From Azolla caroliniana (taxonomy: Eukaryota > Plantae > Polypodiophyta): a DNA stretch of 64,000 bases. The DNA is taken from the NCBI GenBank assembly GCA_043228905.1, contig JBHGNT010000021.1:4588001-4652000 (forward strand), written 5' to 3'. The notes under the pieces were generated by a model, which was not told the DNA's origin, made no database searches, and saw only the letters and a list, made by a program, of their open reading frames with translations. Numbering within the stretch: position 1 is the first letter of the stretch; every line of letters begins with the position of its first letter. Shown one piece after another: positions 18,181 to 54,773 of the stretch. A program made the translations under genes and the position numbers.

Positions 18181-18672
18181 TGTCATAGACAGGATAATGC
18201 CACATGGAATGGTGGGGGTTGAACCCATGACATTCTGGTCTTATTGGGCAACCTTACCAATTGAGCTACATCCATCTATGCATTATTGTATTGTGTAAAA
18301 CTCAACTTATTTCATTATAGATTGATCACTAGAACTTTCAAGAACCTTCTAGAGAATGCATCTTCATGTACTCTCTAGAAGTTTCCATGAACTCTCTAGA
18401 AGTATTCCAGCTTTCATGCATACCACCACATTCTTGTATAAATACTGGGGTGCACCTTGATTACAATCAAGGTGAACAACACCAGTTACGAAAGCATATA
18501 CTGTTCTTGTTTATTTGTCTATCCTCTCTCTTGGTTGTTCTCTTGTCTATGGTCTCTCTCTCCCGCTATCTCTTAATATTGTGCATCGTCTACTTGTCCT
18601 TGACAATCTTGTGATCTTGCTTATGCTCTCGCTCTCTCTTAGTACTTAGCCTCATTCCACCCATTCGTGACA
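18181..18672 (+). repeat. T1 5' LTR
   Basis: Near-identical to 22884-23372; TATAAATA at 18437. Confidence 0.93.
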
Positions 18673-18674
18673 GT

Positions 18675-18685
18675 TTGTTCACCTT
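18675..18685 (+). other. Self-priming primer-binding site of T1
   Basis: TTGTTCACCTT is the exact reverse complement of AAGGTGAACAA (18469-18479), 32 nt downstream of the LTR TATA box; no TGG tRNA-type PBS is present. Confidence 0.85.
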
Positions 18686-18912
18686 CCCATTTTCTAAGCC
18701 TCAACATGTCGGATCTTATCGAGAGAATAAATCACCTCATGGAAGCCATGCATCAACTTCAACTTGAGAATGACAACCTTAGGGAATCGTTACAGAAGCT
18801 TCAAGTTGGAACACTGATGGAACTCGACGAAAAAAAAAACTCTCCTCCTACATCAACAAATGTTCTACCTATAGAGCTTGGTTCCCCGTCTATGCTTTCT
18901 CTGACTCCTTCA

Positions 18913-19531
18913 TATGAAAGTGTTTTTAGAATTCAAGGTATTGAAGTCTACAGGACTATAAGGTATGGTGCGTTCACATCTGCAGGGTAAGAACACGAAC
19001 CAAGGTCTTGAGGATAAGTCAAACTAAAAGCAAGACACGTGGAGAAAAGTAAAAGAAGAAAAAAGTGGGGTACCAAAACACAGTCTGAAATGAACGATCA
19101 TAACTCATTCGTTTGGATGCCAAATATTATGTTCAAATATGGGTTAGAAAGCTTATGAAGAGAGCTATCCGTAGATTTTTAAAACTCTTAATTTGGAGCT
19201 TGGATAAGGGAGATATGACGATTAGAAGATCATTGTGTCATAGCTAAGAATAGGAGATGGAAAACTTCTAAAAAAAGCGTAAAAAAGAAAGCAAGGGAAA
19301 GTTATCTAGTTGAGAAGACTTTTATATAAAAGAAGAAGAGTAAGGTAGTGAGGGAAGAGTCTCTTTCTTGTGGTGATTTCTTTCCAATTCATGTAGTGTT
19401 GTTTGAATTCTTATCAATAGATATTTGTAGTTGTATCTTCTTTCTCTCTTCCTTTTTTCATGATCAATAGATCTTTGTAGTTTTAGATTTATATATCTTC
19501 TTTATCTTTTCTTTCTATCATCACTCTATCA
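18913..19531. mobile_element. Probable solo LTR inserted in T1 gag
   Basis: 619-bp non-coding insert ending ...CTATCA, flanked by CTTCA / CTTCC; removing it restores the gag frame TPS-HPTTSLEPN; contains a TATA-like TATATAAAAG followed by a pyrimidine-rich tract. Confidence 0.6.
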
Positions 19532-22500
19532 CTTCCCATCCCACTACAAGTTTGGAGCCCAATATTAGTTTACCTCACAAGTTCGATGGCACGAGGAAGC
19601 ACTTCCGAGGGTTCATAAATCAGATCAAGCTTATTATCCAACTACAACCTCAACGGTATGCGGATGATTTTCGTCAAGTTGATCTCATTGGGGCCCTTCT
19701 ATCCGGAGCTGCACAAGCCTGGTTTGCACCGTTGGTCAAAACTTCATCACCACTTCTACAAAATTTCCCGCCTTTTGGGCAGAGTTTGAGGCAACATTTG
19801 GGGATACGGACCAACGCCGAACTGCCATCACCAAACTCTATTCATTACATCAAGGTATGCGTCTGGTATCCGTTTATGCCTCTGAATTTAGACAATTAGC
19901 ATGTGATGTTCAGTGGGATGGACAAGCTCTCTGCGACCATTTTCGTCAAGGCCTTCGAAGTGAGATTAAAAATTTATTACTCAACTTTCCAGAGCCTACG
20001 TCATTGTCGCAAGCCATCACGCAAGCAGTTAGTTGTGACAATCGGTTGTTTGAGCTTCGTCAAGAGGAACGAGCAACTTCAAGGTGGAAACCCTCTTCGA
20101 GATATTCTCCATCGTCATCATACGATGACCCCGTATCGATGGAAATTGATCGAAATCGCGACCCACCACTCACCGACGGCCCCAACAACGGGAAAACGAC
20201 GGTGTCCAACTACAGTAGGAGCCATGTGGTTGGACAGTCCGCATTCGTGTCGCTCCCATAGTTCGGCTACATCGACGGAAGATTTCTCCTTTCCGGTAAA
20301 CATCCATTTCAAGTCGATTTCAATTAGACCTACGGGGAGCATAAAATTTGGTACGGATCAAACCTGGAGACAAATGGAAAACCGCCTTTAGAACGCGCTA
20401 CGGACATTTCGAGTATAAGGTAATGCCTTTCGGCCTCACTAATGCTCCTGCAGTATTTCAACATATGATGAATGACATATTCCGAGAATATCTAGATCAC
20501 TTTGTTGTGATCTATCTAGATGATATCTTGGTCTTCTCTTTGAACATCAAGGAGCATACTCGACATGTCAGGTTAGTCCTCGCCAAACTTCGCGGGCACG
20601 AACTTTATGCTAAAAGTGAAAAATGTGAATTTGATCGTACTTCTGTAGAGTTTCTTGGGTATGTCATTTCAACATAGGGAATCATAATGGACACACGAAA
20701 AGTCAAGACTATCCAAGAGTGGGCTGTCCCAACTCGGGTATGAGATGTGCAATCATTCCTTGGTTTTGCCATTTTTTATCGTCGCTTTATCAAAGGATTC
20801 TCAGTAATCGCACAACCTCTCATTTCTCTTACCCCGCAAGGATGCTACTTTTGAATGGACAACAGCTGCCCAAAAGGCGTATGACTTGCTGAAACAAGCC
20901 TTTACTATGGCACCAATCCTTTTACATCCTGACCCAACTAAGCCTTTCCAAGTCAAAACGGATGCTTCCGATTTCGCCATTGGGGCGATCCTCTCCTTGC
21001 TAGATGAGGTTGGTGTGCTTCACCTGGTGGCTTACTACTCCCGCAAATTTACGGCCCCAGAAATCAACTAACCCATATACAACAAGGAGCTTCTCGCTAT
21101 TATTGTTGCTTTTGAAGAATGGAGACCCTATTTAGCCGGGGCGCAACACCGTATCCAAGTGATTACTGATCACAAAAACCTAATATACTTTTCTACCACA
21201 CGAACCTTAAATCGTAGATAGGCGCGATGGTCGACCTTCTTGGCAGACTATGATTTTGAGATAATCTTTCGACCCAGCGCTGAACACACGACGACCAATG
21301 TCTTATCCCGTCGCTCTGAGTTCGAGCTCACTCCGAAGGATGAAGCCTATGTTTAGTACTAGAGTTTGTTAAAGCCTAACCAATTCTACAACTTTGCGAC
21401 TTGCTTGCTCCAGGATGACTCTTTGCTCAAGCAAATAACAGAAGCCACTACGACTGACAAGTTCGCCATAGAGGTCAAGGCAAGTATCACAAACCCCTCC
21501 CATGAACCCAAAAGACCTGATTTTGCTCGTTTTACAATTCAAGATAATCTTTTCTATGTCCCAGAAGGTCCTTGTCGGACAAGTGTGCTTCACGAGGGTC
21601 ACGATGATCCACTTGTTGGTCATTTTGGCGTTGCGAAAACCTTGGAGTTGATATCTCGGGGATACTGGTGGCCACAACCATGGAAATTGATCAAAGAGTT
21701 CGTTAAGTCATGCGATGTTTGTGTTCACTCTAAAGCATCTCATCATCGACCATATGGTCTCCTTCGCCCTCTCCCAATCCCCAAACGGCCTTGGGCCTCT
21801 CTTTCCATGGATTTCATCATTGACCTTCCCTTTGTTGGAGGTTATGACTCGGTATTCGTCATGGTCGATCGTTTCACCAAGATGGCTCATTTTGCTCCAT
21901 GTGCCAAAACCATTACCAGAGAGAAGACAACCGATTTGTTTTTCAAAAATGTGGTTTGACTACATGGACTCCTGAACAATATTCTTCTTATCAAGGACCA
22001 CAATTTGTTTCCAATTTCTAGCGGCGCCTTCTGCAAACCTTTGGTTATACTGTGAATCTATCTTCCGCTTATCATCCGCAAACTGATGGAAAAACGGAGC
22101 GGGTTAACCGAATCTTGGAACATTACTTGCAGTGTTCTCTTAGTTACTAACAAGACAACTAGGTTGACCTTCTCCCACTTGCCAAGTTTCCCTACAACAA
22201 CTCTCTGCATGCATCTATGGGAGTTACTCCATTTTTCACCAACTACAATCTCCACCCCCGCTTCAACATTTTGCTTCCCTCTGACTCTGTCAATCCTTCT
22301 GCGGAGGATTGGGCACGTCTCTTGGAGGACATACATCATGATCTTTCCTTGGAGCTCACCCTCGCTGGCGAACGCTACAATGAGCAAGCTGAACGTCATC
22401 GCTTAGATGCTCCCCAGTTTGAGGTAGGAGACTTTGTTTGGCTTCTCCGTCGCAATATTGCCACCACTCGTCCTTGTCCGAAACTTGATTACAAGAAGTT

Positions 22501-22883
22501 AGCCCCTTTCCGAATCGTTGAGAAAATTGCTTCCATGGTTGTCCCTTAGAGCTACCATCGCACTTTTGTATTCATAATGTATTCCATGTCTCCCTTCTAG
22601 AACCTCACCATATATCTGAAAACCCCGGTCAACACCCATCTCCTCCACCACCAATCCAACTCTCAATTGGAGAAGAATATAAGGTCGACCAAATTCTTGA
22701 CTCTCGTCTCTTCCGTCGCCAGCTTCAATACCTTGTCCTCTGGAAAGGGTACCCGATCTCCGAAGCAACATGGGAGCCGGCACATCATCTCAGGCATGCC
22801 CCGGACATAGTTCAAGAATTTCATGAACGTTATCCACAAAAACTGACCGCGGGTCCAAGGAAGTAGCCTTAGAGGGAGGATAA

Positions 22884-23372
22884 TGTCATAAATAGGATGC
22901 CACATGGAATGGTGGGGGTTGAACCCATGGCCTTCTGGTCTTATTGGTCAACCTTACCAATTGAGCTACATCTATCTATGTATTATTGTATTGTGTAAAA
23001 CTCAACTTATTTCATTATAGATTGATCACTAGAACTTTCAAGAACCTTCTAGAGAATGCATCTTCATGCACTCTCTAGAAGTTTCCATGCACTCTCTAGA
23101 AGTATTCTAGCTTTCATGCATACCTCCACATTCTTGTATAAATACTGGGGTGCACCTTGATTACAATCAAGGTGAACAACACCAGTTACGAAAGCATATA
23201 CTGTTCTTGTTTATTTGTCTATCCTCTCTCTTGCTTTTTCTCTTGTCTATGGTCTCTCTCTCCCACTATCTCTTAATATTGTGCCTCGTCTACTTGTCCT
23301 TGACAATCTTGTGATCTTGCTTATGCTCTCGCTCTCTCTTAGTACTTAGCCTCATTCCACCTGTTCGTGACA
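22884..23372 (+). repeat. T1 3' LTR
   Basis: Direct repeat of 18181-18672, preceded by PPT and followed by TSD TTATG. Confidence 0.93.
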
Positions 23373-26300
23373 TTATGTCTCTATTGTGGCGGCCCTGACC
23401 ATTTGATCCACTCTTGCCCAAAAAAGGGACCCCGTCAAACACCACATCGTGTGGATGGGGATGACATTTTCTGCCAACAGGAAAACTCCAATGTCCAATT
23501 GCAGTAGGGGCTGTGCATCTGGACCACAAGAGTCGACAATTATGTCATGGGCCCAATCAACCGACTTCCTCGACAACAAGCTTCACGCTTCCGATCACTC
23601 TTCAATTTGGCTCTACCACTCTGAAGGGAAAAGCTTTGTTGGATTCTGGGGCTACGTTGTGCTTTATTGACATCATGTTTGCATGGAAACACAACATTCC
23701 AAGAAACAAAATAACCGTCCCAATTCTAGTTGAAGTGTTCGACGGTCAAACGCTCTCTTCTGGTGCCATCACATATACAACAATTCCTTTGGGTCTCCAC
23801 ATAGGAGCCCACCAAGAAGAAATTACTTTTAACCTCATCACATCACCTTGACATCCTATCATCTTGGGGTTATCATGGCTTGAGAATCACAATCCAGGCG
23901 ATCTCGCTCCATCAACTTCACCTTGAATTTTCACTCACAAGGGATTACATCCACCCTTCTTCGAGCCAATGCTCCACCATTTGTTTGGCTGCCTACTATG
24001 GTGAGGACTGTCTCAATGGTTGCTCCCACTCATGTTTTAGGGACAACTCCCATTTATGCTCTAGTGAGAACCACATCAATGGTTGCTCCGATTCCATTTT
24101 CTGCTCCAGTGAGGACCACGTCAACGGTCTCTCCCACTCATGTTTATGCTCCGGTGAGGACCGGGTTATCGGTCATTCCCATTTCCTCTTCAATGAGAAC
24201 CATGTCAACGATTGCTCTAATAGAAACAACATCGATAGTTAGTTCCGTGTCGGCCTCAGAAACAGTTCCAACTCTTGCTCGGGTAAGCGATATAGTGATG
24301 ATTGCATCCATTTCTAATTCTAAGGACATGGCGGTCATGTCCACTCTAGATACTACTCTATGTACGAGCTCTTTTCCATCAAAATACAATGATTTCTCTG
24401 ATGTATTTGAGAAGAAAAATGCTGATCACCTACCTGAACACGCACATACGATTGTCCAATTGACTTGAAAGATGGTGCTTGTCCTCCATTTCGCCCTATT
24501 TATGGGTTATCTGAACCTGAACTCAAGACCCTCAAAATATACATTGAAGAGAATCTCACAAAGGGATTCATTCGCCACTCAAAATCTCCAGCTGGCTCTC
24601 CTATTCTATTTGTCAAAAAGAAAAATGGAACGTTACGCCTATGTATCGACTATCGTGGGCTCAATTGAGTCACAGTTCGAAACCGCTATCCAGTACCTCT
24701 AATTCTCAAACTCCTCGACCGACTTCGGGCTGGGTGTATATTCTCCAAAATCGATCTCAGAGGCGCCTACAACTTGGTGCATATCAAGCTTGGAGATGAA
24801 TGGAAAACGACATTTCGAACCAGGTATGGGCATTTTGAATACATGGTAATGCCATTTGGTCTCACAAATGCTGCTGCTATTTTCCAGCATATGATGAATG
24901 ACATCTTCCAAGAATATCTAGAACAATTTGTGGTCATCTATCTCGACGACATACTTATCTTCTCACAGGACTACGTAGAGCACACCAAGCATGTTCGACT
25001 TATCTTGTCCAAACTTCGGGAACATGGACTTTATGAGAAACCCGAGGTGTGAGTTTGATCAAACCTCAATTGAATTCCTCGGGTATGTCATTTCATTTGA
25101 TGGTCTCACTACAGACGAGAAGAAAGTCCAAACGGTTCAAGAGTGGGAAGTCCCCACCAGGGTCAAGGATGTGCAATCATTTTTGGGTTTTGCCAACTTC
25201 TATCATCGATTCATTCAAGGATTCTCTACATTGACGCAACCACTTATAGCACTCACTCGGAAGGATTCCCTTTTTGCTGGACTCCTACAACCCAACTAGC
25301 ATTTGAGACACTAAAGAAAACTTTTACCTCGGCTCCAGTACTTCTACACCCAGATCTGACCAAACCATTTACGATTGAAACTGATGCTTCTGACTTCGCC
25401 ATCGGTGCCATTCTCTCTCAATCAGATAACAATGGGATTCTTCATCCTGTTGCCTTTTATTCTCGGTAGTTCACACCTCCCGAGATCAACTACCCAGTTT
25501 ATGACAAAGAACTCTCTGCCATTATTGCAGCCTTTGAAGAATGGCGTCCTTACTTAGCAGGCACCCGACAATGTGTCCAGGTGGTGACTGATCACAGGAA
25601 CCTCGTCTACTTCACATGTTACGAAAATGAGAAGCAAGAGTGGCTGAGATGCAGCGGAAGGACTGTGTGTGTGTATGCACGTAAGGCAAAATAGAGAGAG
25701 AGAGAGAGAGAGAGCTTAAGAGAGATAAAAGATTGTATACTACATTAACCAAAATACTTCCAACAGTAACTAAGTTACAAGGGGTTGGTTTAAATACCGA
25801 CTAAACTAGGGCAAGTGCCCTTTCTACTATTTACAAAACTAGCCTGGTATGACCATGAGCTAGTGTGAAACCTATTACTATGGGAAGTTGAGTTTAATTC
25901 TCAACATGCCCCTTCGAACACAACTTCCATCTGTCGAAAAGTTGTTTTGGTTCGGTCTTCGGAATCCGGCTTCCGACATTCGTAATCCTCGAACTGGATT
26001 GTTCGGCTTTTCGGCTTCGTGCTCGGTTCGATTAACTATGTGTTGCGTACTCACGTTGTTGTGAAGAAAACCGTCCACAAGCGGAATCGGTGCACCGGAG
26101 CGTAGGAACTGGCTCTTCATACACGTGCGCCTTATGTTGTACATAGAAGATCCTCGGTAGGTAGGAAGTTAATAGGAAACGACTCCTTCCTTGCCTATAA
26201 AAGGAGGGAGACAAGGAGGGGAGAGGGATCGGGAAGTAAGGGAGGATGAAGTGCTGTCGGATTGTGGGCCGAAGGCTTCTCTCTCTTCCAAACTCCATAG

Positions 26301-26670
26301 CTTCTTTCTGTGCAGGTTTCGGGAGGCTCGCGCTGCTCTGAGGAATGCCCGAGTGCTTCCGGCAGCACCTCCAACCTACTTCTTCCTTTCTGTACGTTTA
26401 GAACAGGCATCGGCATCTGTTCGCCGGCCTGTTCGGTTGTAACCGACTTCGTGCTTGTTGTTTGTCTTGTTTATATATATTTCGACATACATTCGTGTCT
26501 CTCTGTGTCGCTGTCGCACTCGCGTCTCTGCGTCGAAGGGCCATGTCCCTGTGAATCTACGCTCGCACCTTGTGGGTCTCTTCCCCTCTCCTTTTCTCTC
26601 TTGCTCTTCGGTACAGGACCCCCGAGGTCCTGCCTCATTCCACGCATCCGCGAGGGATACCTCGACATCT

Positions 26671-26688
26671 TGGTGAACCCGACGTGAA
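26671..26688 (+). other. Primer-binding site complementary to tRNA-Trp
   Basis: TGGTGAACCCGACGTGAA equals the reverse complement of the plant cytosolic tRNA-Trp 3' end (...TTCACGTCGGGTTCACCA, recalled); identical in B (41984-42001), C (54178-54195) and D (59402-59419). Confidence 0.85.
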
Positions 26689-26710
26689 GGAGGCGGCAGA
26701 AGAGCAGAAG

Positions 26711-28837
26711 ATGAAGGGGTCGGATCTTGCAGAGGCCATGGCTTTGGCCGTGGATCGGATATTGAGTGCACGCAAGGGCACCGGCGCCCTCGACAGAGCC
26801 ATTGAGGCGGTCGTCGGTACGATCGGCCGGTTCAGCGGAAAGGATGCCACGAAGTATTTGGCGTCCTACGGGGCAGAAATGCTGATGCGGGACATTCCGG
26901 AAGAGAGGCGTCTTGCCGGGTTTCCTCGAGTGGCGATGCCGAGCATCCACGCGGAGGTGCTCGAGGTGCGGACGGAGAGCCGTACCTGGGAGGAGTTCGA
27001 AGGCCGACTCCTAGAAAAATACGGGCTGGACGACGCGCTCCGGCTTTCGAAACGGGACTTCATGGAATGGGTGGAGTTCCACGGCAAGGGAAGAAACGTG
27101 ACGGCACTCCTCCGGGAGTTCGAAGAACGCTTTGCGCGCCTTTCGGCGCTTGACCGAGCCGTTCTGGATACGAGCCGGGTCCTACTGTTCGTCAAGTCGG
27201 TGGACGAGCGGGACCGGGGCCAAGTCGGCTCCTTGCTGGAAACCGAGGACGGGCTGACAACCGACTGGGCTGCGGTTAAGAGAGTCTATGGCCGTTTCGA
27301 TAAACGGCGAGAATGGGCTGACAACGGGGCGGCCGGTGCGGGCTGTGTCACAGCAAGGAGGCTTGAACCGGCACCGCAAGTGCGAAGGGAAGAAACCTGG
27401 GAATGGCTCGAAACCGGTCCGGCTTCGACCGGCATGGTCAATGGCTCGTCCGGAGGAGCAGCGCTGGAGGAGTTGACGCGGGCGATAAAGGATCTCCAGA
27501 TCGCCCAGACTCGAAGGGAAGGCGGCGAACCGGCTTGTGACTGACGGCCGGCAGCAGGGAACAAGTGCATGTGGTGTGACGAGGTCGGCCACATCCGGAA
27601 GGACTGCGGCGATTTCGCAGAAGCGTTGAGGAACCGGGTGGTGTACCTGTGGGAAGGCCGGGTGCACGCCGGCGACACCAGGAGGGCCCTGAACCGAAAC
27701 GACGGGCGAGGAGGAATGAAGAGACTGATGGAAGAGGCAGCGGCCCGACACGTGGAGGCCATCCACTACTCGGCGTCGGCCGACATTCGGGTCGGGGGCA
27801 GCGAGGCCCGAAAGGAGGGCAAAGACGGATTCTGGTCGGCAATGCTGGAAGGTCTTGCCGGCGCACGGCTAAGGAAAGATGAAACGGACCACGCTGAGAG
27901 ACGGGTCCGGGAAATAACCGGGTGGAGCGATCCGGTCGAGGAGAAGACGGGCTTTGTAGAAGCCGCCTGCCGGAACTACGAGGCTCTGGTTGAAGACAAA
28001 CGGGTGGGGAAAGCCGGAGCGGCCGGGCCCTCACAAAGGTACGAGACCCGATTCGGGCAACGACGGAACGATGCCGGTGGGTCCAGCTCGCAAGATAACC
28101 CCAGGAAGGGTGGATACCGATTGGGGACGGAAATAGAAAGGACTACGGATCTACGAAAGGTCCTAGAAGAACGGATCCTCGACAGCAAAGTGGAGCTATC
28201 ATTGCGGGAGGTGCTAGGGATCGCCAAGAAGGAGTTCCACGACTCCATTGTAGACTTGGTGAAACGGAAGAGGCTGTCGACGGAGACGGAACCGGAAAGA
28301 CCGGTAGAGGTGCGAACGACGCACATTGACGACTCGGCGTTGGCAGATGAGTGGGTGGAGAGCCACTATTCGAGGCCACACTGGGCCCGAGCGACCACGG
28401 AGACCCCGGTAAAGATCGGAGATGTTCAGGAACCGGTGGTGGCATTGGCGGACCACGGTTCGGAAATAAACCTGATGTCCATGGACTTCTATAAGAAGGG
28501 GAAGTGGCCGATCAACACCAAGCATGGGTGGAAGATACGGGCGGCGACGCGCGCCACCGAGGAACTGCATGGGGCCTGCCCGAACGTGCGAGTCAAGATC
28601 GGCGACGTCGAGATTGACCAGCACTTCTTCGTACAGGAGACGTCCTCGCACCCGGTCATATTAGGTGAACCATACATCACGATGGCGTGGATGGAGACCA
28701 AGGTGCTAGACAACGGTTCGGCCTACGCGAGGGTCAAAAGCCAAGACGGGCGCCATTCGGTCCAATTTCTGACGGTGCGGCCGAACCACGAGAGAAACCG
28801 CGAATCCCTCGGTGGCGAGAACCGGGAGGATTTTTAG
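26711..28837 (+). pseudogene. Element A gag-protease ORF with one premature stop (27542-27544)
   Basis: ORFs 26570-27544 and 27569-28837 are in the same frame; CCHC knuckle CMWCDEVGHIRKDC; protease-like ALADHGSEINLM...VILGEPY; ends EDF-TAG. Confidence 0.88.
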
Positions 28838-31800
28838 AGAGGGCTGCCAAGGCGTGGGGCCGAGACAGCCTGGACACTCGGAAAAGACCCCACGACTGTA
28901 CGATAGGTGGGAAATTTTGCTTCTCCAACAACGGAGGGTGTATGGTAGTCGGCATCGTCGGCCGAGAAAGGACAAGGGCGGAAGTGCGACTTCGAGCGTG
29001 CGGAGTTCTCGGCCCGAACGAGGAAATCAGCGGAGCCGTGGAGGCGGTCTCCTTCGACGACACCTTGGGAATGCTGAGGAAGGTAGCCGGAGAAGACCTT
29101 AGCGAAGACCGGACGATACCGGTATGTTCCGAAGAGATGTACGAAATCATCGCGAACTTCAGTCGGGGGCTCGGGTCGGATCGGACGGCCCGAGTTAGCA
29201 CGAAGTACAAGACTGTGGACCGGAAGGTAAGGCAAGTCGCGGCACCCTTGCCGGAGGGCAGCGAGTCCCGAATCAGAGGGGTTGCGTCGGACCCCAGTTT
29301 ACGAGATCCGGCCTGCATAGGACACACCTTCACTGACGGGATGCTCCGGGAGCTCAAGATCGGTGGGGGCAGGTTCCTACTGCCGGCGGAGGAAGACCGG
29401 TTTCGGAGAATGCTCGGAAGGCACGGGAAAGCCTTCGCATTTTCACCAGAAGAGATAGGGTGCGTAGACCCGACGATTGTGGAGCTGATGGTGATATTCA
29501 CGGTACCACATGTGCCGTGGAATCTCAAGCCGATTCCAGTACCGAGAGCTCACATCCCGGAGTTGATGGAGTTATTGAGGCAAAAAGTCGATATGGGCAT
29601 TCTCGAACCGTCGAGTGCCCCATACTTGAACCGATGGTTTACCGTACCAAAGAAAAACGGGACATTGCGTTTCATTCAGGACCTGCAGCCGGTCAACAGA
29701 GTGACCATTCGGAACGCAGGAATCGGACCGACCATAGACGAGTTCGCAGAGGCCTTCGCCGGAAGGTCGATTTACTCGGTCGGTGATCTGTACTCGGGGC
29801 ACGACCAGTTCCAGCTAGCCGTGGAGAGCAGAGACATTACGACGATGCGAACTCCCCTCGACCTGGTGCGAATGTGTACCCTGCCATAAGGAGGGACCAA
29901 CTCGGTGGCCCACATGGTGAATGCAATGAACAAGGTACTGAGGGATTGCATCCTGGACATCACCATGCCGTTTCTAGAAGACATCCCGATCAAGGGGTGC
30001 CCGGTGGAAGAGAAGGACGAGACAGTCGGGCCGGACGGATGCCGGCGATTCGTGGCGACACACATTGACGACTGCGAGAAGGTGCTACAAAGGGTAGAGG
30101 ATGCGAGGCTCACCTTCTCCGGGGAGAAATCGGCCTTCGGGCAACCGGAAATCCTGGTGGTCGGACACCTATGTGGACCATATGGCCGGAAGCCGTGTCC
30201 GGCAAAGGTAGAAGCCATCTCCGCGATGAAGACCGACTGTAGCTCGGTTACAGAAGTTCAAAGGTTCCTGGGGGCATGCGTGTTCTACCACATATGGATC
30301 CCGCATTACGCCCACGTTGCGGAGCCGCTATACGGGTTGCTGAAGAAAGGGCGAAAATTCGAGTGGCGAGACGAGCACACGGAGTCGGTCCGGAAGCTGA
30401 AGGAAGCTCTTGCGGCAACACCGGTGCTCCGGAAGGCTGTCTACGAGAAGGGTACCCCGGTATACATAACGGTGGATACCAGTCCGACCGGGATCGGATG
30501 GGTCGTCAACCAAGAAGACGAGGACGACATTCGGTTCCCGATCCGATTCGGCGCGAAGGTCCTCAGCGAGTGACAACGAGGGTACGCCCAGGTTAAACGC
30601 GAACTCTGGGGTATCGTTTCGGCAGTAAAGGCCGACAAAGACTACCTGATCGGGAGAGAAGTGATTATCGAGACGGATTGCCTGCCAATTCTCGGCATGG
30701 TTTCCGGATGCGCGACACCGGACCTGGCGATGCTCAGGTGGATAGCGTACATCAAGTCCCTGGACCCGGAAATACGGCACATTTCCGGAAAGGACAACGC
30801 CATGGCCGACATGCTTTCGAGGGCGAGGTTTCATGACGAGGGCGGCATGGTTTCGGAGGACGAAGAAGTCGGCGTAGACTTCTTCGAGGCAGCGTACGTG
30901 ACAACCAATGGGACGAGCGCTCCGGCACTTAACGACTTCGACGAGAGCAAGTACGACGGCGAGTGGCTCTAGATCGGTGGATTTTTGAGGACGATGACGC
31001 CGGATGCGTCGTGGACGAAGGACGAGGCCAACCGGATCCGGAAGAAAGCTTACTGATTCTTTCTCCGGGACGGATACTTATGGAAGCACCCGAAGAAGAG
31101 GAACGACGTCCCGCTCCGGGTGGTGGCGACGAAGGAAGAACAGGAGGAGCTGCTGACGGCCTACCACGACAGCCCTTGGGCCGGACATCGTGGAACGTGG
31201 GCCACGTTCGAGAAGATAAAGGGGAAGTACTGGTGGCCGGGACTGTACCGGGACGTGCATTGGTTCGTGACAACTTGCGAGAGCTGTCAGATGCACTCCA
31301 TAGTCCGACATCGGGACGAGCTTCACCCTACGTACCCTCCGACCATCCACTTCAAATGGATGGTAGACCTGGTGACGATGCCGATGGGAGTAGGACAGAT
31401 GCGGTATCTAGTCCTGGCTCGGGAAGATCTGACGAACCAGGTGGAAGGCCGAGCCCTTCAGAACAAAACGACCACGGCCGTATGTCGGTTCCTAATTGAG
31501 GACGTGATATGCCGGTACGGGTGCGTCGGGAAGATCGTGGCTGATCGCGGGGAGTTGGACGCCGAAGAGGCCGAGGAGCTGTTCGACCGCCTAGGAGTCA
31601 AGCTCTCGCTTACCACTGCGTACAATCCGGAGGCGAATGGGAAGGTGGAGCACGGACACGGACCGATCGTCAAGGCGTTAGTTCGGGCATGTGGGGGGCA
31701 AGTCGGGAACTGGCCGCGACTGCTGCCTTACACGTTGTGGGCTGACCGAACTACGCACAGTTCGGTAACCGGATTCATGCCGGTAGAGCTGATGTTTGGG

Positions 31801-32301
31801 CAGAAGCCGATCATGCCGATGGAATGTACGATCTCCTCATGGGCAACCGTGGACTGGAGAGTCGAGATGAGCCGGGAGGAACTGTTGACGGCGTGCATAT
31901 GGCAGCTCGAGCGAAGACCGGAGGACGTAGAGCGCGCTACGGAAAAGCTTCGGGTGGCAAGGATGAGGAACAAAGCCCGGTTCGACCGAACGCACCGGCT
32001 CCGACCGAAGAAGATCGAGGAAGACGACTGGGTGCTAGTCTACGACAGCAGCCTCGACAACCAGCACCGAGCAACACGGAAGTTCGCAAGAAGGTGGTTC
32101 GGGCCTTACGTGGTACAAAGCGCCAACGACAACGGGACGTACCATCTGGCGGAGCTCGACGGCATGAGAATGGTGATACCGGTAGCTGGGAAACGGATCA
32201 AAGCATTCAAGAAGCGTCACGACGACGAGCCGGATCCGGATAACCTGGACCGGGACGACGAACGATCCGAAACCGAAGAAGAACCGACGGGCGGGGAATA
32301 A
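28834..32301 (+). pseudogene. Element A pol (RT, RNase H, integrase) in the -1 frame, with 4 premature stops
   Basis: One frame with stops at 29887, 30571, 30970 and 31054; RT GDLYSG..GGTNS..FLED (FLDD in B and D); RNase H VDTSP; integrase HHCC (H..GHRG..CESCQ), catalytic core and GPY motif. Confidence 0.9.
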
Positions 32302-33046
32302 AGGCTGGACCAGTTTTCTCCGTCCCAACTCAATTCGGCGCATACCGGTGGATGCGCGGTTAGGTGGGGGCGGATGTCGTGAAGAAAACCGTCCACAAGC
32401 GGAATCGGTGGATCGGAGCGTAGGAACGGGCTCTTCATACACGTGCGCCTTATGTTGTACATAGAAGATCCTCGGTAGGTAGGAAGTTAATAGGAAACGG
32501 CTCCTTCCTTGCCTATAAAAGGAGGGAGACAAGGAGGGGAGAGGGATCGGGAAGTAAGGGAGGATGAAGTGCTGTCGGATTGTGGGCCGAAGGCTTCTCT
32601 CTCTTCCAAACTCCATAGCTTCTTTCTGTGCAGGTTTCGGGAGGCTCGCGCTGCTCTGAGGAATGCCCGAGTGCTTCTGGCAGCACCTCCAACCTACTTC
32701 TTCCTTTCTGTACGTTTACGAACAGGCATCGGCATCTGTTCGCCGGCTTGCTCGGTTGTAACCGACTTCGTGCTTGTTGTTTGTCTTTTTTATATATATT
32801 TCGACATACATTCGTGTCTCTCTGTGTCGCTGTCGCACTCGCGTCTCTGTGTCGAAGGGCCATGTCCCTGTGAATCTACGCTCGCACCTTGTGGGTCTCT
32901 TCCCCTCTCCTTTTCTCTCTTGCTCTTCGGTACAGGACCCCCGAGGTCCCGCCTCATTCCACGCATCCGCGAGGGATACCTCAACAACGTATCATTGCAT
33001 GTTGCGTAATCGATCAATTGCGTATAGTGTGTGTGTCGCTCGCAGT

Positions 33047-34400: not shown

Positions 34401-36336
34401 TGTCGTGAAAATACGACGAGGATATGTGAACTTGAGGCAGGACCCCGGGGCCTCTGACCAGAGGATATCTAATTCGTATGTTTATATTAAACAATTAATA
34501 AAAATAAGAAAGATTAACAAATTTCATTAACAAATAGAAAGAAAGATTACAATCAATCCCAAGATTGGGATTACAAAAGTTTAGTTTATGGAGATTACTA
34601 GAATAATAGATTAAAAGAAACTAAATATGGATTCAATAGAAAATTAGGGTTTTTTGGCTTTGATAAGAGATTATGGTTTATGAGTTCAATAGCTTCCGTA
34701 TGGAAAATTTTGGAATTATGAGAGATATAGCTTCCGTAGGGAAAATTAGAATTAGGTTATATGAGAGATATGGCTTCCATAAGATAAGGGAGCTAAGAAG
34801 GAAAAAAAAATAAAAATATGGAAAGAGAGTATGAGTGTCGGAAAAAAATGGAATTTTGTCTGGAGTTCTCCATTGATCATAGCCTTCAATGTTACTTGCA
34901 TGTCCACTTTTAGTCACATGGCCTCTACGTTTAGTTGCATCCATTTTTAGTTGCATGCAACCGTCCACATGACCTTTACTTTAGTTTTCTTTACTTTACT
35001 TTAATTAGCCACATGATCCTATCATCTATCCGTCTCAATCGCTGCCCATCCAATTCGTCTGGTTTGTGTCCAACCTCATCCGGTCGCTGGTTCCATTCGG
35101 TCACAAGTTCCCGGTTGCCGACTCCGCCCGGTTTCTAGCTCCATCCGATTGCCGATTTCGCTTGTTCCAATTTGCTTACCAGCCGGTTCTAGTTTGCTTC
35201 CCGACCGGTTCTGGTTTGCTTTCCGGCCGGTTCCAGTTTGCTTACCAACCGGTTCCGATTTGCTTTCCGGCCGGTTCCGGTTTGCTTACCGGCCGGTTCC
35301 GATTTGCTTTCTGGCCGGTTCCAGATTGCTTACTGACCGGTTCCGGATTGCTTTCCAGCCGGTTCCGGTTTGCTTTCCGACCGGTTCGGGTTTTGCTTAT
35401 CAGCCGGTTCCAGATTGCTTACCGACCGGTTCCGGTTTGGTTTTTTGGTAACTTGGCCACATTCATCCATCTAGACAAAGTGGCCAAAGTGCTCTTAGCA
35501 CAAATAAAAAATGAGGGATCTCAATGTGGTTATATAGCCAAAGTTTCCTATCTATGTGGGATAAATCATATTTCTATTTTCCCTATCTTCTCAAACTTTA
35601 TGTTCTCATAACTTCCATTTTGTATCTAGTGAAATGCGTTTTAAAGCTCTTGAGTACATCCATCTTTCTATTACAAGCTACTAATCTAATCAAAAATAAT
35701 TATTTCATTATGTTTTTACATAGTTTTCATATCGTGTGTGAAAAACCACACGATATTCACCCCCACCAAACCTGCACATCCACTGGTATGTGCCAATTTT
35801 GGTGAGGCTCCTCTTTTGATTACTTTACTTTTTCATCGATGTACCCGAACTGCCATTGCCATCCGATCCACCATATTCTTCGTTCAGTCTTTGCATTTCT
35901 ATGACCGATTGTCATGGCTCTCTTTGCTCCTCTAGAGCATAATGCTTTGCTCATTATGCATGTGCCACCTTCATCTCGGCCATCTCCTTGGTCATCTAAT
36001 TTTCTTTTATCATTCTTTCTTGTTCCATGCATGCCTTTCGAAGGCCTTATCGAAATACTATTCTTGAGTACTCATAGCAATTTGTTCTTTAGCGGCATGC
36101 TATCCTCTAGGTCCTTAAGTGACCACATTGCCTGCTTCCCACTTTGTCCACTTTTGTGGTATACTCTCGTCTTGGAGTTGACTGACTTCTACACTAGTAT
36201 TATCCTTGTTAGATTTTGTGATCACATCTTTCATATCCGCTTGGCCCACTTGGCCCATATCTTTGCTTGGTCTCTTTGTCGCACACATTAGCTTTTGTCT
36301 TCATGCTTTGCTTGACCTCTTTGTCGCACATATGGA
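34401..36336 (-). mobile_element. E: 3' portion of a Gypsy element related to A-D; long 3' LTR (34401-35755) plus 3' internal region
   Basis: Starts TGTCGTGAA exactly where the Copia RT breaks off; on the minus strand 35756-35810 reproduces the pre-LTR motif of A and C (GCACAT-N8-ATGTGC..GGTTTGGTGGGGGTGAA). Confidence 0.7.
35150..35440. repeat. ~22-bp minisatellite (CCGGTTCCRRTTTGCTTWCCRR-like), about 13 copies, inside the E LTR
   Basis: CCGGTTC recurs every ~22 nt with no unique spacers. Confidence 0.9.
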
Positions 36337-39300
36337 CCACTGGTACCGCTATTCGTGTCCCGTCGAGCTCCGCGAGATGGTAAGTGCCATTGTCGTTTGC
36401 ACTCGTTACGACGTAGGGCCCGAACAACCTCCTCGCAAACTTCCGTGTCGGCTTGTGTTGATTGTCGAGGTTGCTATCGTAAACCAGCACCCAGTTGCCT
36501 TCCTCGATCTTCTTCGGCTGTAGCCAGTGCGTTCGGTCGAACTAGCCCTTGTTCCTCGCCCTCGCCGCGTGCAGCTTCGCCTTAGCCCATTCCACGTCCT
36601 CCGGTCTTTTCTCGAGGTGTCGAATCTGCGCTGCCAACAGCTCCTCCCAGCTCATCTCGTCCTTCCACTCCACCATGGCCCAGGAAGAAATTGTCTGCTC
36701 CACCGACATGATCGGCTTCTGCCCGTACATCAGCTCCGCTGACATGAAACCGGTCACCGAACTGTGCGTAGTTCGGTCCGCCCATAGTGTGTAAGGTAGG
36801 AGCCGCAACCAAATCCCGACTTGTCCTTCACATGCGCGTACTAATGCCTTCACGATTGGCCCGTGCCCACACTCTACCTTCCCATTTGCCTCCGGATTAT
36901 ACGTCGTAGTAAGAGAGAGTTTAACCCCTAATCGGTGGAACAACTCTTTGACTTCCTTCGCATCCACCTCTCCTCAGTCAGCTACTATTTCCATATGCAC
37001 CCGTACCGACATACCACCTCTTCGATTAGGAACTGGCACACAACCGTGGTCGTCTTGTTCTGTAGTGCACAACCCTCCACCTGATTCGTCACGTCCTCTC
37101 GTGCAAGCACCAGGTACTGCATCTGCCCTACCCCCATCGGCATCGTCACTAAGTCTACCATCCACTTGAAATGAACCGTCGGCGGGTAGGCTCGTCTCGA
37201 TGTCGGATCGCGGAGTGCATCTGACAGCTCTCACACGTTACGAATCAGTGCATGTTCCGGTACAACCCCGACCACCAATACTTCTCCTTCAACTTCTCGA
37301 ACGTGCCCCATGTCCCGCGATGTCCGGCCTAGGGACTCTCGTGGTACACCGTTAGCAACATCTCTCACTCTCCCTTTCCTGCCACTACGCGGACTGGGAC
37401 GCCGCCTGGCCTCTTCGGGTGCCTCCATATGTTCCCGTCCCGCAGGAAGAATCGGTGCGCCTTCTTTCGTATCTGGTTAGCCTCTTCCCTCATCCATGCA
37501 GTGTCCAACGTCATCATTTTCAAGAACCTCCTGAGCTGGAGCCACTCCTCGTCGTACTCGCCCTTGTTGAAATCATTAAGTGCCGGAGTGCTCCCTGCCC
37601 TCGTCGTCACGTAAGTTGACTTGAAGAGGTCTACGCTGACTTCCTCGTCCTTTGATACCATGCCGTCCTCGTCGTCGAATCGTGCTCTCGAAAGCATGTC
37701 GTCCATGGCGTTGTCTTTCCCGAAAATGTGTCGTATTTTCGGATTCAGGGACTTGATGTACACTATCCTGTACACGATTCACGATCCACGATTCACCTGA
37801 GCATTTCCAGGTCCGGCATCGCGCATCCTGAAACCATACCGAAGATCGGTAGGCAGTCCGTCTCGATTATTACCTCCGTCCCGATCAAGTAGTCTTTATC
37901 GGCCTTGACTGCCAAAACGATACCCCAGAGTTTGCGTTTAACTTGGGCATATCCCCGCTGCCGCTCACTCAACACCTTCACTCCGAATCAGATGGGACGC
38001 CTTGCGCCACACTTGTCCTCTTGGTTGATCACCCAGCCTATCCTGGTCGGGCTCGGGTCTACCGTTACGTAGATTGGAACATCCTTGCCGTAAACCGCCT
38101 TCCGAAGTGCTGGCGCCGCGGTTAACGCCTCCTTCAATCTACGAACTGACTCTGCATGCTCCTTGCCCCACTCGAATTTATGCCCCTTCTTCAGCAACCC
38201 ATAGAGCAGCTCTGCGTGTAATGCGGAACCCATACGTGGTAGAACGTGCATGTGCCCAGGAACCTCCGCACTTCCGTAACCGACTTGCATTCTTCCTTCA
38301 TTACGGAGATGGCTTCTACCTTCGCCGGAGACAGTTTCCGGCCTTAAGGCCTGCACAAGTGTCCGACCACTAGGATCTCCGGCTGCCCGAAAGCCGACTT
38401 CTCTCCGGAGAAGGTGAGCAACACATCCTCTAGCCTTTGCAGCACCTTCTTGCAGTCGCCGATGTGGTCCACAATGAATCACAGGAAACCATCCAGCCCA
38501 AGCGATTCGTTTTTATCTTCCATCGGACACCCCTTTATCGGGATGTCATCCAAGAACGGCATGGTAATGTTCGGGATGCAGTCCCTCAGCACCTTGTTCA
38601 TCGCATTCACCATGTGCGCAACCGAGTTGGTCCCTCCTTGCGGTAGGGTACACATCTGCAGTAGGCCGAGAGGAGTCCGCATCATCGTGATATCCCTGCT
38701 CTCCACGACTAGTTGGAATTGATCGTACCCTGAGTACAGATCCTTGACTGAATAGATCGACCTTCCAGCGAAGGCCTCCGCAAACTCGTCAATGGTCGAA
38801 CCGATACCTACGTTCTGAATGTTCACCTTGTTGACCGGTTGTAGGTCCTGAATAAAGTGCAACGTGGTTTAGGTCCTAAATAAAGCGCAACGTTGGAATT
38901 GATCGTATCTCGAGTACAGATCCTTGACTGAATAGATCGACCTTCCAGCGAAGGCCTCCGCAAACTCGTCAATGGTCGAACTGATACCTACGTTCTGAAT
39001 GGTGACCTTGTTGACTAGCTGTAGGTCCTGAATAAAGAGCAATGTGCCGTTCTTCTTCGGCACGGTAACCACTGATTCGAATATGGGGCGCTCGATGGTT
39101 CCAGGATGCCCATCTCCACCTTCTGCTTCAGCAGCTCCATCAACTTCGGGATGTGAGCTCTGGGTACCGGAATCGGCTTGAGATTCCACGGCACATGCGG
39201 TACCGTGAAGATAACCATTGGCTCAATGATCGTCGGGTCTACGCACCTGATTTCCTCCGGTGAGAATGTGAAGGCCTTCCCGTACCTTCCGAGCATTGTC

Positions 39301-44949: not shown

Positions 44950-45322
44950 TGTCATGAACATCAACTCGAATGTGAACCTTAGGCCCTTGTATATATATAT
45001 TTCTCCTAGACAAACTTTAGACTTCAAACCTTTGTATAAAGAGTGGTATGTAGGACTCAATATGTAAGACCCAGTATGTAAGACTCATTATGTAAGACTC
45101 ATTATGTAAGACTCAGTATGTAAGACTCAGTATGTAAGATTCAGTATGTAAGACTTGATATACAAGAGTATGCTTGATATTATAGTATGTAAGACTTGGC
45201 ATGAGCATGCTTATCATGCATCACTACATGTATAAAAAGGGTTGATCTCCCTTGTTAACATCAAGGAGATCAACACTAGTGATGGAATAGATATTTTTAT
45301 CTCCAATTGTTCATCCGTGACA
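44950..45322 (+). repeat. T2 3' LTR containing 8 tandem 14-bp units TATGTAAGACTCAG (45047-45158)
   Basis: Follows chromodomain and PPT; TGTCA...TGACA termini; TATAAAA at 45231. Confidence 0.85.
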
Positions 45323-46237: not shown

Positions 46238-48645
46238 TATCACTGAAGTCAAGACTATGACGAATTGCAGATTTCGAAAATGGGCTTGGAATATGACAAT
46301 ATTGGGATGATATGGCAAAACTCAAACCCATGACCTTATGTTACATAGGTTGAGCTCTTGACCATTAGACTATATGTTGTAATACAAAGGATATTATTTT
46401 CATTTAAGTTTACTACAGAAAATTGATGTATATTCTAGATTTCTCTAGAACATTCTAGAAACTTCAGGAGTACTCCTAAGAACACTATAAAAGGAGGCAC
46501 AAGGCATTATTTCGAACCAAATCGGTTCAACGCAAGTCTTAAGCATCCTAGCTACTATTGTATATTCTCTTAACATAATATATATCTTTTGTTATCATCA
46601 TTCTCTCTCTCTCTCCATCTCTCTCTCTCTCTCTCTCACTCACTCTTTCCTTGTCTCGAGAGTTCTACACCTCCCTTACTAGTACTAATCCTCATCTTTT
46701 AGTATTAAATCCTTCTCTGTCTTAGTATTGTTCTTGACGGTACTTGTCTGTCTTAGTACTGTTTCTGACAGTTTGAACCGATTTTGGTCTCCTTCTCTTC
46801 CTTTATCTGCTTACTTCTCCCTCCCTTCATACTAATCTCTTATTCCTCTTTTCTCTCATACTATGGACATTGTTAGTGCTCAAGAATATCAATCTGTTTT
46901 TTCGGAGTTGCAATGCTTGAAAGAGAAGTTTCTCGCATTGGAACAAGAAAATCAACGACTGTTGGGGGAGCTTCAACAAATCTCCTTAGAGAAGTAGCAG
47001 ACGCAACAACAACATGGGGAACTAACATTATGCGTGCAAAAACTCGAAGCAACCATAGTCGTGATGCAACAACAAGGGCCCAGTATGCAAGGGGTTCATA
47101 AAGAACCCAAGATCGGCCTGCCCATGAAATTCAATGGAACACGATTACAGTTTAGAGGTTTCCTTAATCAAGTATGATTAGTCATTCAAATGCATCCTTC
47201 CCGATATCCCATCGATGCATCACGGGTGGGTTTAGTAGGCACGTTGTTAAGTGGCTCAACTTTGGCATGGTTTGCTCTGTTGTTAGAAAAGGAATCTCCT
47301 TTACTAAACAATTTTGAAGAGTTTTTAAGTGAGTTTAAAGCCTGTTTTGGAGATACTGTCAACATAAGGACAACAATTAAAAAAATCCAATGATTATGTT
47401 AAGATGATCGTCTAGACTCCGCATACGCTGCAGATTTCCACCTACTTGCCTCCGATATCCCCTGGGATGACCAAGCATTTATGGAGCAATTTCGTTATGG
47501 TCTAGATAACAATGTTAAGGATTTACTCTTGACCTTCCCTAAAGAACCAAAGTCATTGACAGAAGCAATTAGTCGCGCGGTGAGATGCGACAACCGTCTT
47601 TTCGAACGACATTCGGAACATCAGTTCTAGATGCCAAGGGCAAGATCAGAGCCCACCTATGCCTCAGTGGTAGCAAAACCTTTTCCAAGGGAGTCATATA
47701 ATGCATCTCCAGTGAATACTCCAACTCTGATGGAAATTGACACTACACATCGTCGCGGACCATTATCGGAAGAAGAAAAGCATCGAGCCGAGAAAATCAA
47801 CTATGTCTTTATTGCGGTGGACTAGGGCATATTGCAGTGAACTGTCCCCATAGGCCAAGAAGACAGGTGAACCAAATAGTTGCTAGTTCTAATGGTACTA
47901 AACTCGAGTCTATTTCAGTAGGATATCTGATAGTCCTTTTAGTATTAATAGTCCAAATCTATCGAACAAATTTGATGTCCTTAGTCAATTAGAAGAAGAG
48001 TTAAACGACTAAGTCTAACCAAAATAGGAGTCGTTTGGTTGGACGGCCCTAGATCTGTGCAACCCATTGGTGGTTCCATTCCCTCTAAGCAAGTTAGCAA
48101 TGTGTTCTTAGCCCAAGTAACAGTTAGTACTAAAAGTACCTCTCTAGTACCTGTCTCAGCACTCCTAGATTCCGGAGCTAATTCTTGCTTCATGGATAGG
48201 AATTTTGCCGAAGCTCATCAAATATCCCTAAGAAAACTCCCATGTCCAGCCTCTGTAGTAGTCGTTGATGGTCATCCAATTGCTTCAGGAAATATCACAG
48301 AAGAGTCGGAGCCCGTTAATATTGTCCTAGATAATTCAACGTGTGTAGTATCCTTTAATATAATTAGTATCCCAAAACATCCCATTGTTTTGGGATTACC
48401 ATGGTTCGAATTACATAACCTAGACATAGATTGGAGAACAAGGGAAATCCCGTATCGACAAACCCTTTTGCTACATCGATTGCATGAGGAAGGACGCAAG
48501 GAAGAAATGTTTCTCTTCGCAGCATTAGTAAAACCCTCCACAACCACTAAAGAGGAGTCCACCATTCAACTTCCAGAGAAGTATCGTCATTATGCCGATG
48601 TGTTCGATAAAGTACAAGCTAATACGCTTCCTCACCATCGACCCA
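46238..48645 (+). mobile_element. T3: 5' part of a third Tcn1/Tf1-like Gypsy (LTR, gag, protease)
   Basis: LTR ends ...CTGACA at 46770 (left end approximate); self-complementary PBS 46773-46784; gag KIGLPMKFNG, AVRCDNRLFE, MEID, CCHC remnant; protease LLDSGANS...LGLPWF; breaks off at LPHHRP. Confidence 0.8.
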
Positions 48646-52900: not shown

Positions 52901-54773
52901 TCTCCCGAGAAGGTAAGCCGCACGTCTTTGAGCCTCTGTAGTATCTTTTTGCAGTCGGCAATGTGGTTCGTGAAAAACCTTCGGCACCCGCCCGTGCCGA
53001 TCAACTCATCCTTGATGTCCTCTGGACATCCCTTGATAGCGATGTTGTCCAAGAAAGGCATGGTGATGTCCGGAATGCAGTCCCTCAGAACTCTGTTCAT
53101 AGCATTCACCATGTGTGCAACCGAGTTGGTTCCTCCTTGTGGTAAGGTGCACATCCGAACTAGACCGAGAGGGGTTCGCATTGTCGTGATGTCCCTGCTT
53201 TCTCGTCGTCCATGGCTATCTCATGGAGGAGTGCCGCCCTTACCTCAACCGGCTTCTCGGGCTCCGGTTCCGTTGCGAGACGCTTCCTCTTCACGAGGTC
53301 CACGATGCTATCGTGGAACTCCCTTCTTGCTATGCCGAGCACTTCCCTAAGCGTGAGTTCTATGTAACTGTCGAGAACTCGCTCCTCTAGAACCTTTTGT
53401 AGGTTCGTTGTTTTCTCTATCTCCGAGCTTAAGCGGAAGCTTGGAATCCCGACTATGTTCGTCGGGGGTGGGCCTAGCTCAAGCCACCTCCTCGTTTCTT
53501 CCATTTGGGTTGGCATTGGTTCGGCCCGGATTTTAACAGCCGGTCCGAACGACGAGGACCCCTTTTCTTTCCAGTCCCGGTGTTTCTCAATCCTACTGCA
53601 TACTTCCTTGATAGTCGCCTAGTCAGTCGTGACACCTTGGTTGGTTTCCAGAAGAAGACCCACGCTTTCCCGGACGCGTGAGTCGAACGAACTGACAAAA
53701 AATAGAACCTTGCTCGTTTCGAGCACGGTTCGGTCCAACCTAGAGAGTCGTGCGAACGGTGACTCGAACTCCTGGACGAGCGCAGAAGCGTTCCCAGTCC
53801 ATAAAATCCTTTCTCGATAACTGGAGCGAATCATCGTAGTTGTACCTCTCAAGAACTTCCTCTACGAACTCCGCCCAATCGTGACAGCCCGCTTGTATCT
53901 CGATCATCTCTGTATGGATGTGTGGGGTTACGTCCCGGGGAAACCTCGTTAGCCATCTATCTTTGGGTATGTTCCTCATTTGCATTTCAGATTCATAGGC
54001 CTCTAAGTAGCTCGTGGTGTCCTTTCCGCCGAACCGGCCTATCTTGCCGACTGTTGCCTCTATGGCCCGGTCGAGGGTACTCACGCCCTCGCAAGCACTA
54101 ACCAGGCGGTCTACTGCCACCGCCATCGCTTTTGCAAGTTCGCTTCCTCTCATCTCCAGATTCCTTTGCCGCCCTTCTTCACGTCGGGTTCACCAAATAT
54201 GTCGAGGTTATCCTCGCGGATGCGTAGAAGTCGGGCAAGAGCACAGGGGTCTCGAACCAAGGAATCAAGAAAGCGAGGAGGGAGGAGTTTGGGGATCGCG
54301 TAGGTCTTGAGAACACGGGAGAGTGGGTAAGTTGAGTGAACGAGAGAGAGTAAGAGAGTCACGCGTAGACACAGACACTGACAAAGTCACTGAGAACAAA
54401 GTATGTTAGGTAGAAAGAGTTCTATTAAACCACAGGTGCACATTGGTGTGAGCGGTTACAGCTGGATCAGAGCCGGTGATGGAGCGCGGAACTTTGGCAA
54501 ATAGCCAAGTACAAAGAGACGTCGGTGCGCAGAAGGTCAATCCCCAGGTCGGGAGCACTCGAGCGTCTGACGAGAGTAGGGGAAGCGCCTTCTTCCTCGG
54601 TTAGTCCTCAGTCGTTCTCTGTGTATCCTTTTTTCTAGATGGCATTCCGAAAACAGTCAAAGGTCGCCCCTTTTATATCACAAGGAGCGACCATTACAAG
54701 CATTCATGACCCATTACTTTTTCGTCCTAGATTCTCTCCTCGTAACTCTCCCTAATAATGCGATGTCTATATC
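49964..54773 (-). mobile_element. C: internally deleted Gypsy element of the tRNA-Trp lineage
   Basis: 3' LTR 49964-50689; 5' LTR 54200-54773 interrupted by Copia G; PBS 54178-54195; gag ATG 54153; gag fused to mid-RT at ~53200 (protease and frameshift region lost); outer flank ACGT at 49960-49963. Confidence 0.9.

Follow-up and report, generated by a model that had tools for sequence, protein, structure and literature searches.

How does a retrotransposon that primes its own reverse transcription keep its primer-binding site (PBS) from pairing with the second copy of its primer? Self-priming is known from Tf1, and predictions extend it to many elements of plants, fungi and fish. Primary Tf1 papers aside, the portions of the literature considered here (PMC2864245, PMC7175516, PMC3601003, PMC4600332, PMC5445492, PMC5341516 section 5, PMC5371799, bioRxiv 2022.12.06.519325 and PMC6317226) do not address this question, nor do they describe a U3 arm directed against a self-primer or junctions of the kind reported below. 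The question is raised by a stretch of 64,000 nucleotides (the window) from the genome of Azolla caroliniana (assembly GCA_043228905.1, contig JBHGNT010000021.1, positions 4,588,001 to 4,652,000), which measures 523 Mb and is rich in LTR elements. In three LTRs of the window, belonging to elements here called T1, T2 and T3, the initial annotation had seen a segment between the TATA box and the predicted start that is complementary to the predicted 5' end of the RNA. These strings were found at the expected positions (T1 18453-18474 and 23153-23174, T2 45241-45274, T3 46514-46528). The relevant features are the following:

18181..23372, + strand, T1, a decayed Ty3/gypsy chromovirus-type element with LTRs at 18181-18672 and 22884-23372
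18437..18444, + strand, TATA box of the T1 5' LTR, read from the sequence
18450..18461, + strand, U3 arm of T1, the left strand of a 12-bp stem with one mismatch
18466..18477, + strand, right strand of the T1 stem, made of the final 3 nt of the predicted U3 and primer nt 1-9
18469..18479, + strand, predicted 11-nt self-primer of T1 at the start of R, a perfect complement of the PBS (putative transcription start)
18480..18492, + strand, conserved CRCCAG linker of T1 and a strand predicted to pair with the end of U5
18675..18685, + strand, PBS of T1, 2 nt past the LTR end
23150..23179, + strand, second arm and primer copy in the T1 3' LTR, which would sit at the 3' end of the RNA
44950..45322, + strand, 3' LTR of T2, downstream of a PPT and a chromodomain-coding stretch
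45241..45274, + strand, T2 arm (45241-45254) and primer copy (45263-45273) in a 13-bp stem with one bulge
46514..46530, + strand, short T3 arm GAACC (46514-46518) abutting a 12-nt primer (46519-46530)
46773..46784, + strand, PBS of T3, 2 nt past the LTR end at 46770

T1 is flanked at both ends by the 5-bp target-site duplication (TSD) TTATG and contains an integrase zinc-binding domain; in T3, gag and protease come after a 5' LTR. The U3 of T2 (45033-45322) contains a 14-nt tandem repeat, and in this copy the interval from the TATA box to the LTR end is 55 nt shorter than in its relatives. Elsewhere in the window lie two further LTR elements (26057-32986 on the + strand and 49964-54774 on the - strand) with a PBS that begins TGG and has a tRNA-type look, more related pieces (36339-42069 and 59299-64000), Copia domains (55640-56986), and a 22-nt tandem repeat of about 11 registers (35142-35472) that adjoins a gypsy-type piece.

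The Pfam Chromo domain was found in the T2 stretch of the window and in two relatives, L122 and L125. Both relatives, which carry long open frames, have the Ty3/gypsy order PR-RT-RH-IN with the chromodomain at the integrase C-terminus and with overlapping gag and pol frames, and the best solved relative is Ty3. In T1-T3 and related families the PBS is complementary to the element's own LTR and is not of tRNA type. In the available portions of the REXdb survey, a chromodomain, PR-RT-RH-IN, overlapping gag and pol frames and a 5-bp TSD (which T1 has) are common features of the plant Tcn1 clade (PMC6317226, Additional file 5), and self-priming was predicted for 83% of 1500 of its elements (PMC6317226). 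Our elements match this clade as described in those portions; the RT tree given below is made up of unnamed elements. The survey scored only LTR-PBS complementarity, and neither a U3 arm nor fold-back products appear in the same portions (PMC6317226).

Wherever a family has a 5' LTR, 2 nt separate the LTR from the PBS, and the PBS matches a stretch of 11-12 nt that begins at a C|A step 32-33 nt past the TATA box. We inferred the transcription start from three features, namely the TATA spacing, that C|A step and the point where the PBS match ends; it lies 32, 32 and 33 nt past the start of TATA in T1, T2 and T3, each time at a C|A step, in agreement with the earlier prediction. The primer had also been described as ending in CAAC. 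The PBS-matching part stops at CAA, and the C that follows is unpaired. For T2 a PBS had been forecast from the LTR, and it was found, one letter off the forecast, in 7 of 30 T2 loci, where GA/TA + TTGATCTCC(TT) follows directly after the LTR. The T2 PBS thus reads GA-TTGATCTCCTT, exactly so in five loci and with one end mismatch in two; the other loci are 3' or solo LTRs or loci with an LTR end that was not located. The T2-type PBS is also present on 3 metagenome contigs.

RNA folding predicts primer:PBS pairing of 0.84-0.96 in 15 leaders, each taken alone. The structures predicted for T1 and T2 combine the primer:PBS duplex with an inner duplex of R and U5, which in T1 joins the strand at 18480..18492 to 18664-18671. 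A pattern of TATA box plus CAACRCCAGT had 5999 LTR matches in the genome versus 5 in the control. The linker CRCCAGT (18480-18486 in the window and about 6000 other LTRs) comes just after the primer and is nearly invariant in both clades defined below; it faces the 2-nt gap before the PBS and is a candidate recognition site for primer cleavage. Another pattern, ending CCAGV, returned mostly mutated copies and noise (130 matches versus 38 in the control) and served only for spotting further families.

The T1 stem is present, but its extent had been understated: it pairs 18450-18461 with 18466-18477 apart from one G.A mismatch, and both strands of its three innermost pairs belong to U3. The fold surpasses shuffled sequences in T1 (z -4.57, 0 of 200 as good) and in T2 (z -3.37, 1 of 200), and the T3 fold taken alone does not (z -1.51, 20 of 200). 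The fetched DNA contains 1175 further TATA sites, of which 12 need at least 10 kcal/mol to open the equivalent position, and three of the eight strongest of these background sites are copies of T1/T2/T3 LTRs.

To place the arm on a tree, 37 distinct promoter strings were linked to reverse transcriptase (RT), with 77 related loci from metagenome contigs included. A search of viral contigs found no related loci; 120 motif matches there looked like chance and were left unused. The RT tree separates clade A (T1 and T2, with primers starting AAGG) from clade B, to which T3 and other elements belong. Freeing the primer costs 8.8-17.6 kcal/mol in the 16 clade-A strings, each of which beats all 150 of its U3 shuffles. 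In clade B, 5 of 21 strings reach p<0.05. Most of the 21 have a 5-10-bp arm immediately before the start, and 8 of 21, from at least two lineages, are essentially armless (at most 3.3 kcal/mol). The armless families retain the full primer/PBS anatomy, and these self-priming families rule out a universal arm. The arm had been described as conserved in chromovirus LTRs, which holds across the T1/T2 clade but not for the several self-priming families of this genome that have none. The position of the arm also differs, at about -19..-8 in clade A versus -9..-1 in clade B. Among more distant elements an arm is seen in L354 (p 0.09) and L355 (p 0.04), and L326 is without one. Two side cases concern the make-up of these LTRs. 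L142 and L419 have a chimeric LTR, in which one family's U3 arm is fused to another's primer at common letters and unrelated sequence follows the primer. Family F4 (L132, L139, L418), with LTRs 1.7-2.5 kb apart, a short internal region, its own primer and a partial arm, is probably non-autonomous.

Covariation was assessed in 13 sequences, namely 12 of the 16 clade-A strings (the near-duplicates L131, L136, L332 and L346 being dropped) plus L132. The 12-bp stem is paired in 93.6% of the 156 cells of this alignment, and in 25-49% when the partner strand is slid. Compensatory changes on both sides occur in 4 of the 12 stem pairs, and arm and primer pair in one register across the T1/T2 clade; since the shuffle control ignores relatedness, this covariation is supportive and is not a probability. 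Two of the four covarying pairs lie wholly in U3. The other two involve the primer, and in these the arm, primer and PBS change in concert (L336, L337, T2); for example, pair 18-37 is A-U, G-C or U-A and tracks the primer and PBS of these three. The earlier claim that the arm belongs to U3 is upheld, as far as U3 is predicted, and in the T1/T2 clade alignment the arm covaries with the primer. The arm is kept over deep RT branches while the 5-nt spacer and the loop diverge, and spacer variation among T1-type copies is partly at CpG sites. A matched double change of arm and primer was seen in none of 100 T1-type copies among the matches listed, which argues against constant automatic repair. In a single case, L030/L408, the same single change is found in arm and PBS with the primer unchanged; the 3' LTR of L030 was looked for and not found, and the shared change is unexplained.

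The inverted repeat formed by the U3 arm is real and covaries, and we lean modestly towards the explanation that it locks the R copy of the self-primer wherever U3 lies upstream of this copy on a single plus strand. A copy locked in this way is likely not free to pair with the PBS. The 5' end of the RNA is without U3, so normal priming would be untouched. Displaced plus-strand strong-stop DNA ending in a primer copy has been reported to accumulate in Ty3, and the dead-end plus-strand strong-stop DNA of Ty1 and Ty3 is likewise a displaced single strand with such an end (PMC5371799 section 2.2, as far as that section goes). A tRNA-primed end has no partner in the LTR, whereas a self-primed end matches R, and hence there is a fold-back hazard. 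Plus-strand strong-stop DNA (U3-R-U5-PBS) would here end in a PBS copy able to fold back onto its own R, and extension of the folded end through U3 would give a dead insertion, either an inverted LTR dimer or an element with a scrambled 5' LTR. The local hairpin of the arm, presumed to form on single plus strands, would form first, outcompete the PBS and trim this loss about fourfold.

In DNA folding models, predicted fold-back is at most 0.02 in eight arm-bearing cases (T1, T3, F1b, L332, L337, F3d, F10 and F11) and 0.92-0.98 in the same eight with U3 forced open. For the armless F6, F7, L287 and L288 the predicted value is 0.91-0.96. F3c runs against this pattern, with no predicted fold-back even when U3 is open.

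Pairing of the PBS with the primer copy in R would be expected to yield an LTR end followed by 2 nt, the PBS and inverted U3. This pattern had 232 matches versus 32 in the control, which amounts to about 200 insertions, and by hand count 93 of 100 among the matches listed are PBS plus inverted U3 of the same element. Eighteen junction regions were fetched whole, and a matching 3' LTR lies within range in 7. Five of these 7 have an exact 5-bp TSD, U3 copies 95-100% alike, and a normal PPT and 3' LTR; their 5' end consists of U3, primer, a piece of inverted U5 (28-195 nt) and then internal sequence. The junctions are integrated products. Inverted LTR dimers with two U3 ends also occur, with an exact TSD in L434 and 4 of 5 TSD positions in L460, and their inverted U3 stops precisely at the first base of the LTR. 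Dimers account for 6 of 58 scored junction loci, and the majority are partial inverted U5 joined to internal sequence. Just 6 of the 58 repeat an earlier locus, so the majority arose independently. Another arrangement considered, in which R-U5 is cleanly inverted between primer and PBS, accounts for only 3 of the 58. In L443 the 3' LTR behind a normal PPT continues into PBS and inverted U3, a third type of fold-back product. In L490 (G000:C2:11022216) and L491 (G000:C1:15516328) the hairpin loop has the opposite orientation to that of the family, as arm-to-arm template switching would produce; judging by these two copies, pairing of the arms does take place at some stage.

With matched patterns over the whole genome, arm-bearing clade A has 21 junctions per 922 normal LTRs (2.3%, 5 of the 21 being duplicates on small contigs) and the armless set has 76 per 839 (9.1%), a ratio of 4.0; the armless patterns also catch a few copies of one short-arm family (2/76, and 1/100 among the matches listed) and leave out the armless family F16. 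A tenfold gap estimated among the matches listed became fourfold on these whole-genome counts. Within clade A, T1-type LTRs with a mismatched arm have about 10 junctions per 194 and those with perfect stems about 5 per 535 (estimated denominators), and the short-arm T3 group stands at about 1.5%, though it belongs to the RT clade of the armless families. By family, with denominators scaled by hand from the matches listed, the rates are 0, 0, 0, 0, 0.6, 1.1, 1.5, 5.2, 10.9 and 14.3% with an arm and 5.5, 6.9, 9.0, 15.6 and 35% without (one-sided p 0.011 for 10 versus 5 families, excluding partial-arm F4 at about 3%). The copy-level p of 2e-9 overstates the case. Several families do not fit: F10 has an arm of 8-9 bp and a predicted block, yet 4 junctions per about 28 LTRs; T2 has no predicted block (0.73), yet 0 per about 111; F9 is armless with low predicted fold-back (0.008), yet about 16%; and F1d has a near-perfect stem, yet 6 junctions (3 unique) per about 55. 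The gap runs in the predicted direction, between and within clades, and the link is correlative: because arm status follows lineage, differences in RT or Gag, age and solo-LTR rates could contribute.

Could the main job of the arm instead lie in the genomic RNA, where it would cover the 3' R copy, as was originally proposed? We consider this unlikely, and equally so the accompanying detail that an uncovered 3' copy would be paired, cleaved and lost as the acceptor of first-strand transfer. Two-strand RNA folding blocks uptake of the PBS in 5 of 6 arm-bearing elements: in T1, F1b, L337, T3 and F3d the 3' copy takes the PBS at no more than 0.002 with the arm and at 0.73-0.95 with U3 forced open. 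T2, however, is unblocked and remains at 0.72, and the model takes no account of the 5-kb separation or of the 5' leader's head start; primer:PBS pairing in that leader alone is 0.84-0.96. A plus-strand G-U at pair 24-31 in 4 of the 13 aligned sequences speaks for RNA, but G-T pairs are equally compatible with plus-strand DNA, and an inverted U3 ending exactly at the first LTR base in the dimers fits a DNA template. Folding thus allows masking at the RNA level, while the genomic traces point first to plus-strand strong-stop DNA, an intermediate that the original proposal had not taken up. The further suggestion that the arm disables priming in read-through RNA is predicted to hold in some families, but primer:PBS pairing is still 0.56 in T1 and 0.95 in T2.

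A neutral origin, in which the hairpin is made and kept in repair by template switching between short inverted repeats, with other differences among lineages behind the junction rates, appears improbable. It would accommodate the inverted loop in 2 of 100 clade-A LTRs among the matches listed (arm switching does occur), the change shared by arm and PBS in one copy (L030), and the survival of at least two lineages that lost the arm yet still transposed. It sits poorly with the lack of a matched arm and primer double change in the 100 T1-type copies among the matches listed, with an arm retained over deep RT branches despite its diverging spacer and loop, and with rate differences that go the predicted way between and within clades. 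We also hold it to be hardly probable that the repeat has its role outside reverse transcription, as a core-promoter element in DNA or as a signal for termination and polyadenylation. Its location between TATA and start would suit such a signal, as would the 8 of 21 T3-clade sequences without an arm and the short arm of that clade, whose 5 nt immediately precede the start and may belong to an initiator; but a protein-binding site would preserve its letters, whereas the arm varies with the primer, and the position of the arm is unlike between the clades.

On the best reading, the arm hides the copy of the primer that is present in plus-strand strong-stop DNA. It probably does so at the 3' end of the RNA as well, where masking may, on the folding models, be an additional effect of this hairpin. 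U3-containing RNA primers could also be the starting point of the junctions. The arm likely works as a guard against mis-copying, arm-bearing families having about fourfold fewer folded-back insertions. As a requirement for priming it fails, since armless L128 has LTRs that are 99.8% identical; this insertion is recent, and the arm is therefore dispensable for priming. It is an accessory device.

Similar designs are known. In the portions seen of bioRxiv 2022.12.06.519325 (section 28) and PMC7175516, Tf1, Tf2, Tj1 and Tosmo of the Tf1/sushi group likewise have a 5' primer of 11-12 nt that can pair with a PBS just past the LTR, and their three-duplex 'pretzel' likewise has a predicted inner duplex of R with the U5 end. 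The pretzel duplexes all use sequence 3' of the primer, whereas the arm described here lies upstream in U3 and opposes the pairing; those portions do not mention a U3 arm for these four elements. In Tosmo2 a divergent U3 segment halts 9 bp before the U3-R junction, which the authors interpret as a recombination breakpoint; a kept arm would look alike (bioRxiv 2022.12.06.519325 section 28, in part). The Conserved Hairpin Site of fungal GalEa Copia elements is, as far as the available text of PMC5445492 goes, likewise a short conserved hairpin tied to LTR-element priming, but it follows the 5' LTR in place of the PBS and, unlike the present arm, is not in U3.

The structural element is real, strong in the T1/T2 clade and optional elsewhere, on a known self-priming design. 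What is new is the link of the arm to fewer fold-back insertions, and this link is correlative. More tentatively, and with rather less assurance than we give the hairpin itself, we propose that self-priming may have a built-in cost in the fold-back of strong-stop DNA onto R, that anti-primer locks in U3 may have evolved repeatedly, and that lock strength may set the number of dead inverted insertions in each family. The analysis provides a candidate cis-element and defines failure products that are countable in any assembly. It also explains where some inverted-repeat insertions come from; there are about 200 here, and if transcribed they could form double-stranded RNA. If the reading of lock strength is true, genomes record the efficiency of a step of reverse transcription.
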